A DNA stretch of 64,000 nucleotides from Escherichia phage vB_EcoM_G10400. Shown here piece after piece: positions 28,785-40,223 of the stretch. Position 1 is the first letter of the stretch, and the number at the start of each line of letters is the position of its first letter. The notes under the pieces were generated by a model. The model was not told the DNA's origin. It did no database searches and saw only the letters and a program-made list of their open reading frames with translations. Where the stretch lies: the sequence record MK327937.1; one strand, 5' to 3'. The translations under genes and the position numbers were made by a program.

Positions 28785-28962
28785 CTAAACGAATAGGTTC
28801 ATGAATGCCATATCCTTGAACAGAAATTTCTGTCGTAGGATAAATTCCATCAATATCACCCATATTCCAGGCTTCATTAAATTGCTGTTCGCCTGAATTA
28901 CTAAACCACTCGGCGAAAGCATTTAGCACATCTTTAGAACCTTCAATAATTATCTTTGCCAT
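28741..28962 (-). CDS. Hypothetical protein
   Basis: 73 aa ORF. Confidence 0.4.
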   Translation of the reverse strand: MAKIIIEGSKDVLNAFAEWFSNSGEQQFNEAWNMGDIDGIYPTTEISVQGYGIHEPIRLVEYDLCTGEEVKYD

Positions 28963-29324
28963 TACAAACTCTCGGTGAAGGTACGAGCAATAACGTCGCG
29001 CTGCTGTTCCGGAGTCAGAGAGTTAAAGCGAACTGCATAACCAGATACACGGATGGTCAGCTGCGGATATTTTTCCGGATGCTTAACTGCATCTTCCAGA
29101 GTTTCACGACGCAGAACGTTAACGTTCAGGTGTTGACCACCTTCAATTTTAACTGTAGGCTGTTGCTCAATTTCAATTTCACGGGCATGCAAACCGTAGA
29201 AAATTTCTGGGTCTACAAAAGAGTCCTCTTTAAAGGTTTTAGAGACAATAATTCGTGCTTGAATACCATCTTCAAAATAAATAGTACCTTTATGTGTGCC
29301 TTCAAGAATTTGATATGCTTTCAT
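28962..29324 (-). CDS. Autonomous glycyl-radical cofactor (GrcA/YfiD-like)
   Basis: 120 aa; C-terminal half carries the pyruvate-formate-lyase glycyl-radical signature (RVSGYAV) and is encoded by markedly GC-rich DNA (about 28962-29170). Confidence 0.8.
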
Positions 29325-29658: not shown

Positions 29659-30254
29659 TATTGCATTCCGATTACGAAAAACTGTGGACGAGTAATACCA
29701 CCAATGCAACATTTACTATTACAGCAGTAGTGTACAGTGTCAATATGGACGCTATAAATCTTATCCATATCAGGAGATTTGACAGGCTCATCAATTATAT
29801 ACAAAATTCGCGAAAGCGATAAACCTCTGAACTTGCTTCCTTTATTACCAATAAAACTGCGTACAGAATCAGTAAATAAACGAAAACGTATATCATCATT
29901 AGAATAACGCGAAAATTCCTTTTTAATGTTATTTGCAGAAATTTTAGCGTAAGCTGAAGTATTAGAAAGAACAATAACTGTTCCGCCATCATACAGCCAA
30001 TTAGCAGCAAAGTTAGTCACAGCAATTGATTTACCAGATTGACGTCCACCATCTATACGAAGTGTGCAGTACTGTTTAAGTAATTCTTCAAATGGCGGGA
30101 TATATTCGTTTTTACAAATTTCTTCTACTCTAGCATCAGAATGGTGTGTAAAAGCATTCATCAGGGATAGATACGGGCCAGTTAAAAATGTTCTCATATT
30201 TTCTCTCTTAATTTTTGGGCCATTCCATGGCACATGAGTTGTCCATTCCTGCAT
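29658..30254 (-). CDS. Small P-loop NTPase
   Basis: 198 aa; Walker A GGRQSGKS and Walker B-like ILYIIDEP. Confidence 0.5.
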   Translation of the reverse strand: MQEWTTHVPWNGPKIKRENMRTFLTGPYLSLMNAFTHHSDARVEEICKNEYIPPFEELLKQYCTLRIDGGRQSGKSIAVTNFAANWLYDGGTVIVLSNTSAYAKISANNIKKEFSRYSNDDIRFRLFTDSVRSFIGNKGSKFRGLSLSRILYIIDEPVKSPDMDKIYSVHIDTVHYCCNSKCCIGGITRPQFFVIGMQ

Positions 30255-30332
30255 TACCCATTACCGCGCTTTGGCTCGACCTTATCACAGGTTGGCGGGA
30301 ATACCTCAAATGAGGTCCAGGCTGTTCCCATA

Positions 30333-30806
30333 TTATTTGAACGATTTAACGTACTGAATAGAACCTTTACTATTTACAAAGGCAATTTTACCATTTTTAT
30401 TATACATGGTAGCAGTACGTTGATAACCATAAGTTTGTTTACCAGATTGATAACCAACTAATGCGAAATTATCTTCACCCATTTTATTCTGTTTAGCGCG
30501 AATGCGTTCATGACCATGTGCCATAAGAACCTTAGCATCACCAGTTGCAATGGATCTACGAGTTTTTTCATCTTCAACTGTATTAACAAAGTCGTCAAAT
30601 GAATCAAATTTAGCATGAGATTTATTATACAGTTTTCCATCTACTGTATAATTATATCCCTGTACATCCATCTCAACTTCTGTACCATCATCCAATACAG
30701 CAGTGATTTTTTGACCTTTTTTAAATTTCAAAAGATCAGTAAAAGATTCAGCAATAATTTGAGAATTAATAGCTGCTTCAGTGATAAATTCTTGATATGT
30801 TTTCAT
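30333..30806 (-). CDS. Internal head protein candidate (IpII/IpIII-class)
   Basis: 157 aa; N-terminus MKTYQEFITEA is the conserved capsid-targeting sequence of T-even internal proteins; lysine-rich body. Confidence 0.65.
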   Translation of the reverse strand: MKTYQEFITEAAINSQIIAESFTDLLKFKKGQKITAVLDDGTEVEMDVQGYNYTVDGKLYNKSHAKFDSFDDFVNTVEDEKTRRSIATGDAKVLMAHGHERIRAKQNKMGEDNFALVGYQSGKQTYGYQRTATMYNKNGKIAFVNSKGSIQYVKSFK

Positions 30807-30815
30807 ATGTTTCCT

Positions 30816-31232
30816 TTAAATGTAAATATTTTTACCGTAATACTTATACCAATGTGGTTTCATTAAAATTTTTTCATCAAGTCGTTGTTGACTCAATTTA
30901 ATAGCTGATTTGCATGGATTATAATCATTTTTCCATTCTACTGGAATATCGCTGATGTCAGGAACTTCAGTATCTTTTATACTGAACCCTCGTTTTAAGC
31001 ATTCCGTTATAATGTCCGATTGACGCTTTCGCAAAAATTCTAACTTATCGTAAAAGAACGTAACATGACCAGAACCTAAAATAAACTCGGAAGATATTTT
31101 AAAATCTTTAACGCGCTTACCGTTTGCCACATGCTTACGAACTATACCAAAAACACGTGGCAATTCACGGTATTCTGCGATTAAATGTTGATCAGCAAGT
31201 TCAGATACTAAAGTCAAATTAATACGAGTCAT
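30816..31232 (-). CDS. denV: Endonuclease V (pyrimidine-dimer DNA glycosylase)
   Basis: 138 aa; near-identical to T4 DenV from memory ([17 protein letters not shown]…). Confidence 0.9.
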
Positions 31233-31251: not shown

Positions 31252-31822
<571 letters not shown>

Positions 31823-35495: not shown

Positions 35496-35606
35496 TTAAA
35501 AAGTTTTAGGGAATTCTAGGGTCAGGAGGGGCAATTAAAAGATAGGATAATATATTATAAAGGGTAGAAACTAAATGATGCCTAGAGAGGCCCGGAAAGG
35601 CCTAGA

Positions 35607-35641
35607 TACCAAAAAGCCCCAACCTTTTGGTCGGGGCTAAG
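35607..35641 (-). terminator. Intrinsic terminator (repeat copy A)
   Basis: Minus-strand RNA AGCCCCGACC-AAAA-GGUUGGGGCU followed by UUUUUGGUA; 35 bp element repeated at 36166-36200. Confidence 0.6.
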
Positions 35642-35645
35642 AATG

Positions 35646-36119
35646 TTATTTGATTTGTTTAGCAGACCAAATGCGGTCTTTAATAATTTTTTGGATGTCT
35701 TCAACATACTCAAGAGAGTGAGCATGTGGGTTATCTTTGAAACTATAAGCACGAGCTAGCTTTTGGCCTTCAGTTTTGATTACTAAAAGCTCTTTAAGGA
35801 TAGCTTCATATTTAGAGATAATTCCTTTAACAATATTTTTTTCTTGTGCAGCTTTAGGATCTGCTTTAGGAGCAGGTTTACCTGAAGCCTTTGCAAAAGC
35901 AGCGCCAGTAGCAACTAAACTTTTCCAGGCCATACTAACTGCATTTCCCGTAAATCCTTCCGCTTTCATGTCGCGTGCGAACTGGAATCGCGATTCATCA
36001 GAAGCATCTTTATAAGAATATTTACCCGCTGCAATGGCTGCTTTTGCGACAGCTTGAATTTCGGTGCTAGATGCTTCATTTAACACCGCTTCATTTAAAA
36101 ATTGAGTATATGATTTCAT
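35646..36119 (-). CDS. Internal head protein candidate (divergent capsid-targeting sequence)
   Basis: 157 aa; N-terminus MKSYTQFLNEA resembles the internal-protein targeting sequence; a TATAAATA late promoter lies just upstream; alanine/lysine-rich body. Confidence 0.6.
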   Translation of the reverse strand: MKSYTQFLNEAVLNEASSTEIQAVAKAAIAAGKYSYKDASDESRFQFARDMKAEGFTGNAVSMAWKSLVATGAAFAKASGKPAPKADPKAAQEKNIVKGIISKYEAILKELLVIKTEGQKLARAYSFKDNPHAHSLEYVEDIQKIIKDRIWSAKQIK

Positions 36120-36159
36120 CTTATTTCCTGTTTTAATTTGTAGATATTTAATATACTAA

Positions 36160-36167
36160 TATTTATA
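36160..36167 (-). promoter_or_regulatory. Late promoter upstream of the internal-protein candidate
   Basis: TATAAATA on the minus strand, about 40 nt upstream of the ATG at 36119. Confidence 0.55.
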
Positions 36168-36200
36168 CCAAAAAGCCCCAACCTTTCGGTCGGGGCTAAG
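36166..36200 (-). terminator. Intrinsic terminator (repeat copy B; end of the tRNA/stable-RNA operon)
   Basis: Same 35 bp element with one substitution (GAAA loop), followed by a U-tract. Confidence 0.6.
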
Positions 36201-36590: not shown

Positions 36591-37256
36591 TTAAAATTTC
36601 ATTTTTCGACCTTTAAACCATCCTTCTGGAATTGGGTCAGTTTTCTTAATACGTTTAGAAACTTTTTCATCTAATGAATGAATCCACATCATGCCAAATT
36701 GGGAATTCTTTTCACCTTGTTGGTGTTTATTTCTGGCGTGAGATTCTTTCATTTTATTAATAGTTTCAGGAGTATGGGTCTTACCCAAGAAAGATTTAGT
36801 ATTTAAAAATTTCTCTCTATACTTAGGATTATCCCAAAGCTGTTTAAACCTTTCTGAACCCATTTTACGATATTTTTCTTTAAGGTCTGGGTCGTTCTCA
36901 AATCTGGTTTTAAAAGCGGCAGCTCCTTTTAAGGAAGCTTCTTTCTTTTTATCCAAATATTCTTTAGTGTTTAAATGGTCCCAACCACCTTCACCACCTA
37001 ATTTCAAATTATAAACATCAGAGCGCTTTAAAAACTCTTCAGTCACAATATTCTTTTCTGACTCAAACATAGAGGTTTTATCGTCAAAGAACTCTAATAT
37101 TTCTTTAGAAAAATTTTCTATACCATACTTATCTTGGGCTCTTTTTAATAATTTACCAGAACCCATATATCCATCATCTAAATTTTCGGTAGAATGAGCG
37201 CCTATATAGATTTTATTATTAATTTTATTTGTTATTTTATAAATGTAATGGAACAT
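36591..37256 (-). CDS. segB: GIY-YIG homing endonuclease SegB
   Basis: 221 aa; N-terminal GIY-YIG motif (YIYKITNKINNKIYIG); embedded in the tRNA cluster, as T4 segB is. Confidence 0.8.
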   Translation of the reverse strand: MFHYIYKITNKINNKIYIGAHSTENLDDGYMGSGKLLKRAQDKYGIENFSKEILEFFDDKTSMFESEKNIVTEEFLKRSDVYNLKLGGEGGWDHLNTKEYLDKKKEASLKGAAAFKTRFENDPDLKEKYRKMGSERFKQLWDNPKYREKFLNTKSFLGKTHTPETINKMKESHARNKHQQGEKNSQFGMMWIHSLDEKVSKRIKKTDPIPEGWFKGRKMKF

Positions 37257-37801: not shown

Positions 37802-38434
37802 TTATTTATTACGTGAAAAAGACTGTTCTATCAATTCTGGACACTTTCGTTCTATCCATTTTCTAGCTTTTTGTGGGCTTATACCTATTATTTTAGCAGC
37901 TTTACTAACCCATCCAAATTTAGAATAATCGATTTTAACTAATTCTTCGTAAATTTCATCAGTTAAAATCTTTTCATTAATATTTACCAGTAAATGATAT
38001 AATTTATTATCATTAGCAATTTTAATGAATCTTTTATAGTTTCCGCCTTTACTTAAACCTAATGAAGTAATTGCAGATGATATAGTAGCCGAATTTAATA
38101 GTGCGTTTAAAATTTCTTCATCACTAACATTATAACGCTTTTTATTATTTTTAATATTTTTACCAGCAAAAGTATCAGTTTGCGAATGGCAATTTGGACA
38201 TAATAATCTTAAATTTGATTTAAGATGATTTTTGTTATTTCCATCAATATGGTCTAATTGCAGAACAATATGCTTATTTTGCCATTTTGAAATTTTACAA
38301 ATTGCACACTCATATGGAAAAATATTTTCTTTTATTATTTTGTCTTTCAGCTTTCCTGTACTAAAATTTGGATGTTTTCCTTCAAAAATTTCAGCTAATT
38401 TAGTATCCATAATATGATTCCCAATTATTAACAA
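37802..38434 (-). CDS. HNH family homing endonuclease
   Basis: 210 aa; HNH core (…LQLDHIDGNNKNHLKSNLRLLCPNCHSQTD…) with flanking Cys pairs; stop codon 6 nt from the 5' end of tRNA-Leu. True start may be the internal ATG at 38410. Confidence 0.7.
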   Translation of the reverse strand: MLIIGNHIMDTKLAEIFEGKHPNFSTGKLKDKIIKENIFPYECAICKISKWQNKHIVLQLDHIDGNNKNHLKSNLRLLCPNCHSQTDTFAGKNIKNNKKRYNVSDEEILNALLNSATISSAITSLGLSKGGNYKRFIKIANDNKLYHLLVNINEKILTDEIYEELVKIDYSKFGWVSKAAKIIGISPQKARKWIERKCPELIEQSFSRNK

Positions 38435-39938: not shown

Positions 39939-40223
39939 TTACAAAAGATTTTTAGCAATAATTTTAAGCTGAGCTACTGAAATATGCTTGGCTTTAAACA
40001 AAGCAGTTTCTTCAGCAGGGGAGATAATGATTGTAGCACCATCTTTCTTAGCGGACCATCCATCACCCAGGTAAACAGTACCTTTAACTTCTTCGCCATC
40101 AACCAGGCTAATCATCGGTTTACCTTCACGTCCTTTGTTTGCTTTAATAACTTCAGAAGTAAGGGTCGCTTCAGTCAAAGTAGAAGCGTTAGTCGTTGAA
40201 GTGAATTCTTGATAAGTTTTCAT
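39939..40223 (-). CDS. Internal head protein at the ipI locus (divergent from T4 IPI)
   Basis: 94 aa; N-terminus MKTYQEF is the capsid-targeting sequence; sits immediately before 57B, where T4 has ipI; the body does not match T4 IPI as I recall it. Confidence 0.6.
   Translation of the reverse strand: MKTYQEFTSTTNASTLTEATLTSEVIKANKGREGKPMISLVDGEEVKGTVYLGDGWSAKKDGATIIISPAEETALFKAKHISVAQLKIIAKNLL

Follow-up and report, generated by a model that had tools for sequence, protein, structure and literature searches.

The region analyzed here, a 64,000-nt stretch of Escherichia phage vB_EcoM_G10400 (MK327937.1; hereafter referred to as the window), represents a segment of a Tequatrovirus (T4-like coliphage) genome, being 96 to 99% identical to Tequatrovirus genomes. 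The region around ip4 displays 99.1% identity to phage vb_EcoM_bov9_1 and at least 95% identity to several hundred other T-even genomes, and the last 4 kb of the window, which ends in gene 17, is 100% identical to phage G29. Genes of the minus strand are arranged in the order gene 1, 57A, 57B, ORF-C (positions 39939 to 40223), a tRNA cluster that includes segB-like and HNH genes, and ORF-B (positions 35646 to 36119), followed by e.8- to e.2-like genes, nudE, e, denV, ip4 (positions 30333 to 30806; ORF-A), and a vs.8-like gene, all of which are encoded on the minus strand. The position of ip4 between denV and the vs.8-like gene is that of the hyperplastic e-denV-vs.8 ip locus, and ORF-C, located beside 57B, occupies the hyperplastic 57B-tRNA.4 ip locus. 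The tRNA cluster harbors a segB-like GIY-YIG ORF (positions 36591 to 37256, minus strand), segB also being present in T4, and a 210-amino-acid (aa) ORF (positions 37802 to 38434, minus strand) whose product appears by eye to be HNH endonuclease-like (HIDGNNKNH…CPNCH) and which is located where T4 has no gene. As the layout of the cluster differs in close relatives such as G29, the window is considered to be mosaic at this point.

The ORF at positions 30333 to 30806 (stop codon included) encodes a 157-aa precursor which starts with MKTYQEFITEA and adjoins denV, as had been stated in the original prediction; its strand, which the prediction had not given, is the minus strand. The endonuclease V gene, denV (positions 30816 to 31232, minus strand; Pfam Pyr_excise, PHROG 1183), terminates 9 nt upstream of the ATG of this ORF. 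The ORF product matches Pfam DUF7412 over residues 1 to 157 of the 158-position model (E = 1e-95; 318.6 bits against a curated cutoff of 27 bits) and PHROG 3155, “internal virion protein” (E = 1.5e-101). It shares 98% identity and a TM score of 0.90 with UniProt entry Q38388, “Ip4 [Enterobacteria phage K3],” which represents its sole structural neighbor among viral models. Analysis by tblastn identified Ip4 in approximately 470 phage records, including those of T2, PST, RB3, RB18, and ime09, with the “internal virion protein” of T2 and the “Ip4” of ime09 being 99.4% and 98.1% identical, respectively, and with copies of approximately 70% identity in T4-like phages of Klebsiella and Salmonella. 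Cluster members bear names such as “IpIV internal head protein” (from T2) or “Internal head protein 4,” the gene is annotated as ipIV in the genome of phage PST, and an identical layout of denV, 9 nt, and Ip4 is already annotated in the RefSeq phage teqskov. The ORF is, therefore, the known and named gene Ip4/IpIV, of which the original prediction constitutes a correct rediscovery, and ip4 belongs to the polymorphic set of internal-protein genes found in Tequatrovirus phages. In comparison to the Ip4/IpIV proteins of K3, T2, and PST (DUF7412, PHROG 3155), which belong to the same family over their full length (98 to 99% identity, 157 aa, and the same leader), nothing of substance differs except the neighboring gene. 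Plus-strand ORFs which overlap positions 30234 to 30866 were rejected as spurious, being antisense to a gene conserved in 470 genomes and lacking support of their own.

A Shine-Dalgarno sequence, AAGGAA (positions 30811 to 30816, minus strand), was read within the 9-nt spacer between denV and ip4, where it overlaps the denV stop codon. Upstream of denV, a T4-early-type promoter (GTTTAC, 18-nt spacer, TAGTAT; positions 31258 to 31287, minus strand) was assigned by homology, the denV promoter region being near-identical to the T4 sequence located between e and ipIII, i.e., that which precedes ipIII in T4. This promoter was not reported by a simple sigma-70 scan; the early-promoter consensus described for PST/T4 is TTTACW-N17-TAYWAT (PMC4122927). 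Between denV and ip4, no promoter- or terminator-like site was found except TATAAGTA (positions 30841 to 30848, minus strand), which resembles a late promoter with one mismatch and is situated just upstream of ip4. As no terminator-like site separates the two genes, denV and ip4 are probably cotranscribed. An exact late promoter is absent directly upstream of ip4, where only TATAAGTA was detected, and an exact-match scan located exact late promoters upstream of e, at positions 31800 to 31820.

The original prediction ascribed the same leader to the three minus-strand ORFs, and this holds insofar as all three fit the pattern M-K-[S/T]-Y-x-x-F, the leaders themselves being similar rather than identical: MKTYQEFITE|A in Ip4, MKSYTQFLNE|AVLNE|A in ORF-B, and MKTYQEFTSTTNASTLTE|A in ORF-C. 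The start of ORF-B, MKSYTQFLNEA, is identical to the Ip4 leader at 6 of 11 positions, with conservative T/S, E/Q, and I/L changes, while that of ORF-C comprises MKTYQEF followed by TSTTNASTLTEA, forming a longer, IPI-type leader. A six-frame scan of the 64-kb window for ATG-started M-K-[ST]-Y-x-x-F identified only these three ORFs; given that the window contains 597 frames which begin with ATG and span at least 40 aa, approximately 0.01 such starts would be expected by chance, as estimated from rough amino acid frequencies. A 120-aa ORF at positions 28962 to 29324 (minus strand), vs.7-like by map position, starts with MKAYQILEG; this was considered as a fourth leader and set aside as probably a chance resemblance, since the fit is loose (Y4 and I-L-E at residues 6 to 8) and F7 is absent.

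The claim that the bodies of the three proteins are unrelated holds at the sequence level. When the Ip4 and ORF-B families were aligned profile to profile, residues 1 to 10 alone were matched, and Smith-Waterman scores obtained after removal of the leaders were no higher than those of shuffled sequences. A hidden homology between Ip4 and IPI, as raised by a BLASTP match (E = 3e-5), a weak cross-match to PHROG 4363, and a weak DUF7412 match on ORF-C, was rejected because the similarity loses significance once the leader is removed (162 of 2,000 shuffles scored at least as high as the leaderless pair), the BLASTP match being owed mostly to the leader. A single head-targeting leader borne by different cargoes is, moreover, the textbook picture of the T-even internal proteins, with ORF-A being Ip4 and ORF-C representing the IPI orthologue, and the reading of the three ORFs as a set of injected proteins with a common leader is thus supported, by analogy. 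The shared-leader idea is already known, the gene, the leader, and the shuffling of cassettes having been present in the literature since 1994. The idea of a common leader on different injected proteins reportedly goes back to Repoila et al. in 1994 and is also said to trace to Mullaney and Black in 1996.

The first 10 residues of Ip4, MKTYQEFITE (positions 30777 to 30806, minus strand), represent the predicted capsid targeting sequence (CTS) and match the T4 IPII/IPIII leader, MKTYQEFIAE, at 9 of 10 positions. In T4, the first 10 residues of IPIII are sufficient to package foreign proteins (PMC9026906, PMC3012670), residues 4 and 7 are the determinants of targeting, and residues 8 and 10 are those of processing by gp21, whose motif is L/I-X-E (PMC9026906). 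Y4 and F7 are present in Ip4, ORF-B, and ORF-C alike. A gp21 cleavage motif behind the leader, which the original prediction had named as the feature to look for, was sought at residues 8 to 10 or, in the IPI type, at residues 16 to 19, and is present in each case, so that the prediction was not refuted by the first of its own criteria, a missing motif: Ip4 carries I-T-E|A at residues 8 to 10, the same position as in T4 IPII/IPIII; ORF-B carries L-N-E|A at residues 8 to 10 as well as L-N-E15|A; and ORF-C carries L-T-E18|A, the A of which corresponds to the first residue in the solved structure of IPI*. Cleavage of Ip4 by gp21 is accordingly predicted after E10 (I-T-E|A), and residues 11 to 20 (positions 30747 to 30776, minus strand) contain a second candidate site, I-A-E20|S, on the grounds of family conservation. 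Among 14 Ip4 family members of 60 to 99% identity, E10 and E20 are invariant, and residues 18 to 20 conform to [I/L/M]-x-E in all but one, which has T at residue 18. This pattern suggests a second gp21 cut after E20, which would yield a 137-aa Ip4* with a pI of 9.3, the computed pI of mature Ip4 being 9.1 to 9.3. In the AlphaFold2 (AF2) model of Ip4, residues 10 to 18 are disordered and are followed by a compact alpha/beta body.

The corresponding leader of ORF-C extends over 18 residues of a 94-aa precursor which is matched by Pfam IPI_T4 (E = 3.5e-51) and whose map position, beside 57B, is that of T4 ipI. Residues 1 to 76 of mature IPI* (PDB 2JUB) match residues 19 to 94 of ORF-C (E = 1e-42), and cleavage is therefore placed after L-T-E18, giving a 76-aa IPI*. 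T4 IPI/IPI* (PF11634, PDB 2JUB), an inhibitor of the GmrSD enzyme from E. coli CT596, represents the same class of CTS-targeted, gp21-processed, and injected proteins. T4 IPII and IPIII resemble Ip4 in their near-identical 10-residue CTS, in a cleavage site at the same position, and in being small and basic; T4 ipII additionally shares with ip4 identical leader and ribosome-binding-site DNA, and ipII and ipIII are located in the same hyperplastic e-denV-vs.8 region. The mature bodies of IPII and IPIII are, in contrast, unrelated in sequence to that of Ip4, GmrSD targets have been identified for Ip2 and Ip3, and an additional conserved [I/L/M]-x-E site, at residue 20, distinguishes Ip4 from IPII/IPIII.

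To place these leaders in a wider context, denV loci were gathered from IMG/VR, from which 47 distinct CTS ORFs were recovered on both sides of denV. [LIM]xE occurs at residues 8 to 10 in 45 of these ORFs, whose upstream ribosome-binding-site sequences vary widely. Across the set, T3 is specified by four synonymous codons, I8 by three, and E6 and E10 by two each; since these residues are retained through synonymous changes, selection is considered to act on the peptide and not merely on the DNA. A phage using such a leader is expected to possess the gp21 prohead protease and a gp22/gp67/gp68 core. Gene 21 is located outside the window, which ends in gene 17, and phage G29, whose Ip4 orthologue is 99.4% identical, possesses genes for both the gp21 protease and the core proteins. 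A literature search retrieved no virion proteomics, mass spectrometry, or functional data for Ip4. When taken jointly, the assignment of the ORF as Ip4 and its CTS-directed packaging and processing are regarded as highly likely.

Based on the above, the following sequence of events is proposed. Transcription of ip4 together with denV would start at the early-type promoter at approximately positions 31258 to 31287, and read-through from the late promoters upstream of e may contribute. The CTS of the precursor, MKTYQEFITE, would then direct it into the gp22 scaffolding core during prohead assembly, as is deduced from the near-identity of this sequence to the experimentally tested T4 IPII/IPIII leader. 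Following cleavage by gp21 after E10, and probably also after E20, a basic product of 147 or 137 residues would remain with the packaged DNA, and mature Ip4, once ejected with this DNA, would most likely, by analogy, neutralize a defense directed against incoming glucosyl-hydroxymethylcytosine (hmC) DNA.

An alpha-glucosyltransferase is annotated in the genome regions which match positions 1 to 25000 of the window, and the phage DNA is therefore presumed to contain glucosylated hmC, the substrate of type IV enzymes. Ip1, Ip2, and Ip3 inhibit one GmrSD type IV enzyme apiece (PMC12373910), IPIII retains its activity when expressed in the cytoplasm without its CTS, and a CTS protein from the ipI locus of Bas37, another phage, blocks McrBC (bioRxiv 10.1101/2025.11.20.689424). 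The latter protein, Bas37_0260, represents a CTS cargo beyond Ip1 to Ip3 which is likewise an inhibitor of type IV restriction; as described, it has only the N-terminal signal in common with other internal proteins, without homology to IPI, IPII, or IPIII, and, set beside Ip4 on the basis of that description, it is encoded at the ipI locus, whereas Ip4 is encoded at the denV locus. By analogy with these proteins, a type IV restriction variant, GmrSD- or McrBC-like, is tentatively proposed as the target of Ip4, an assignment in which we place something short of even confidence. Ip4 displays no sequence or fold homology to Ip1, Ip2, or Ip3, searches with PADLOC, PDB profiles, and Pfam returned nothing beyond DUF7412, and its fold is an orphan. 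When ip4 to ip10 were assayed against a GmrSD panel, no reproducible inhibition was observed (Silas 2025, PMC12373910), the diversity of GmrSD being very large and 15 groups having been sampled (PMC12373910). Furthermore, T2 is restricted by GmrSD-ECOR21 and GmrSD-ECOR17 (PMC12373910); because T2 carries Ip4, these variants are not considered to be its target.

Two other functions may be envisaged for a protein that is packaged by way of its CTS, each of which is considered unlikely. According to the first, the main role of Ip4 would be structural, as a basic DNA counter-ion and a scaffold helper similar to IPIII. The basic pI of mature Ip4 is consistent with such a role, as is the reported contact of internal-protein lysines with DNA phosphates (PMC3012670), and approximately 300 copies of each internal protein accompany the DNA, with IPIII mutants exhibiting slower head assembly and a smaller burst (PMC9026906). 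Since the 64 kb contains three CTS ORFs only and the e-denV locus lacks ipII and ipIII, Ip4 may be the bulk internal protein of this phage, and the published panel did not yield a GmrSD target for ip4 (PMC12373910). The internal proteins of T4 are, however, dispensable on laboratory hosts, all four of the functionally solved CTS proteins are restriction inhibitors, and the distribution of Ip4 is patchy, the gene being swapped in the manner of an accessory gene; the structural and the anti-restriction roles are, moreover, mutually compatible.

The second function, to which a similarly low probability is assigned, is that of an injected effector acting against a target other than type IV restriction, i.e., another first-response defense or a component of host takeover. 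The negative outcome for ip4 against active GmrSD variants in published tests (PMC12373910) and the orphan fold of Ip4 are in keeping with this, and Alt, a gp21-processed and injected head protein, functions as an ADP-ribosyltransferase, not as a restriction inhibitor (PMC9026906); the target of Ip4 may be a defense not yet linked to internal proteins. Against this, the known targets of CTS proteins are type IV restriction systems in four of four cases, the huge diversity of GmrSD was sampled in no more than 15 groups, and neither the Ip4 model nor hidden Markov model (HMM) scans revealed enzyme-like features. The preferred reading remains that of a CTS-packaged protein whose target is, tentatively, a type IV variant.

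The gene which precedes ip4 varies among T-even phages: it is e in T2 (which lacks denV), ipIII in PST, and denV both here and in teqskov, whereas in many close relatives, such as teqsoen, slur02, and PhiZZ23, an additional small ip gene of 318 nt, absent from the window, lies between denV and ip4. In T4-like contigs, CTS ORFs are also found on either side of denV. A three-way DNA alignment, which included teqsoen (segment 2700 to 3060 against positions 30784 to 30830 of the window), revealed that the window corresponds to the denV-proximal leader of teqsoen on the upstream side and to ip4 downstream, from codon 9 onward. As the denV side matches up to the leader and ip4 matches from codon 9, the crossover is placed inside the intervening 26-nt repeat CATATGAAAACATATCAAGAATTTAT (positions 30784 to 30809, minus strand), which is common to the two tandem ip leaders in these relatives. 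The ip4 gene of the window and T4 ipII are identical over approximately 50 nt, from the ribosome-binding site through the eighth codon. The 31 nt which extend up to the ip4 ATG (positions 30807 to 30837), TAAAAATATTTACATTTAAAGGAAACATATG, are also those found upstream of T4 ipII; they consist of the last denV codons and the spacer, the denV allele ending in …GKNIYI* here and in …GKAIYA* in T4. As this stretch is located upstream of ipII in T4, where denV itself lies downstream, the ipII leader seems to contain a relic of a denV 3′ end, and, judging from the sequence, this relic seems to have derived from an arrangement similar to that of the window. The shared leader-coding DNA would also act as a recombination joint for the shuffling, insertion, and deletion of ip cassettes. 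The polymorphism of ip genes is reportedly attributed to Repoila et al. in 1994.

That the leader is nothing but a scar left by recombination or a portable module for translation initiation, with Ip4 remaining unpackaged and, if active at all, acting as an ordinary cytoplasmic early protein, would accord with the identity to T4 ipII around the ATG and its ribosome-binding site, with the cassette boundaries inside the leader repeat, and with the early-type promoter ahead of ip4, yet it is regarded as highly improbable, since the leader peptide is retained through synonymous changes while ribosome-binding sites differ among the 47 CTS ORFs, the retained residues are exactly those required for targeting and cleavage (PMC9026906), and the near-identical first 10 residues of IPIII suffice for the packaging of foreign proteins.

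The finding of Ip4 in itself is of little consequence, as the gene is known and annotated in RefSeq. Because all four solved relatives specifically inhibit type IV restriction, Ip4 nevertheless represents a reasonable probe for a new restriction variant which limits T-even host range, a matter of relevance to the choice of therapy phages. By-products of the analysis may be worth more, namely an apparently unannotated CTS family, that of ORF-B, at a third locus, and a covarying-helix RNA-like element which is shared with unrelated phage genera.

ORF-B (positions 35646 to 36119, minus strand), with its CTS-like leader MKSYTQFLNE|AVLNE|A, encodes a 157-aa member of the unnamed family PHROG 2280 and is flanked by the e.8-like gene and the rnaC/tRNA cluster, outside the hyperplastic ip loci. 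The late-promoter consensus TATAAATA (positions 36160 to 36167, minus strand) was identified by exact-match scan, its last base preceding the start codon of ORF-B by 40 nt. The ORF is bounded by a direct repeat consisting of a 35-nt terminator hairpin, of which two copies were observed against zero expected by chance, upstream at positions 36165 to 36199 and downstream at positions 35606 to 35640 (both minus strand); the consensus overlaps the end of the upstream copy, and ORF-B is contained in a 559-nt unit delimited by these repeats (positions 35606 to 36199). In phage G29, terminators are annotated at both copies. T4 possesses a single hairpin copy and no ORF at this position, which fits a repeat-mediated gain or loss of ORF-B. 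Members of the ORF-B family occur in 511 matching phage records, and the protein is designated “hypothetical” or “uncharacterized” in all 40 of the tblastn matches listed and in all 36 of the named members read across two clusters. The leaders of its homologues (MKTYNEFLNES, MKSYAEFLTEQ, MLEYSEFLKEL, and MKFKEFLAEA) are followed by a conserved x-x-E|[A/Q]S. Although the literature speaks of “two Ip loci” (PMC12373910), we propose that the repertoire may extend beyond these, with ORF-B being, on a reading that we hold with modest confidence, a CTS-targeted, gp21-processed, and injected protein whose self-contained cassette, comprising a terminator, a late promoter, the ORF, and a terminator, would constitute a third locus.

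This arrangement is reminiscent of the PeSL-type promoter/terminator cassettes (Arbiol 2010; Comeau 2014), in that ORF-B is likewise situated between repeats and displays a pattern such as insertion or excision mediated by repeats would leave. Unlike these cassettes, the ORF-B element pairs its terminator with a late promoter, TATAAATA, rather than an early one, and the recombination repeat of ip4 is, again unlike PeSL, a leader-coding sequence.

At a comparable tRNA-flanked locus of Yersinia phage fHe-Yen9-01 (segment 200 to 2037), three tandem CTS-like ORFs were observed, all of which are annotated as hypothetical. Their products are gp156 (52 aa), with the canonical start MKTYIEFINE; gp154 (189 aa), with the start MLQYNEFLKE and with TATAAATA ahead of its gene; and gp153, a homologue of ORF-B which starts with MLEYSEFLKE. 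As judged by these sequences, “ML.Y.EFLKE” may represent a variant targeting leader.

Immediately downstream of ip4, a GC-rich RNA-like element occupies positions 30215 to 30332 (minus strand), in the interval separating the ip4 stop codon from the vs.8-like gene; the RefSeq annotation of T4 assigns this stretch to the N terminus of vs.8. Rfam and tRNA scans of this GC-rich stretch matched no family, and the folding energy of the single sequence is unremarkable. The element possesses a near-invariant core of roughly 38 nt, AACCUGUAAUAAGGUCGAGCC-NNN-GYGCGGUAAUGRGU, with an invariant core at positions 30259 to 30283. Within Tequatrovirus, the core recurs, every time at the boundary between ip4 and the vs.8-like gene; it is also found in Vequintavirus and in one Pseudomonas phage, in unannotated spacers within tRNA clusters, and Campylobacter phages were matched in addition when blastn was performed with the element. 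Complementarity between loop and tail suggests a putative pseudoknot. The helix which closes the core and the abutting 5′ hairpin covary between lineages (e.g., GGGAA/UUCCC, GGGAG/CUCCC, GAGUG/CACUC, and GGAAC/GUUCC).
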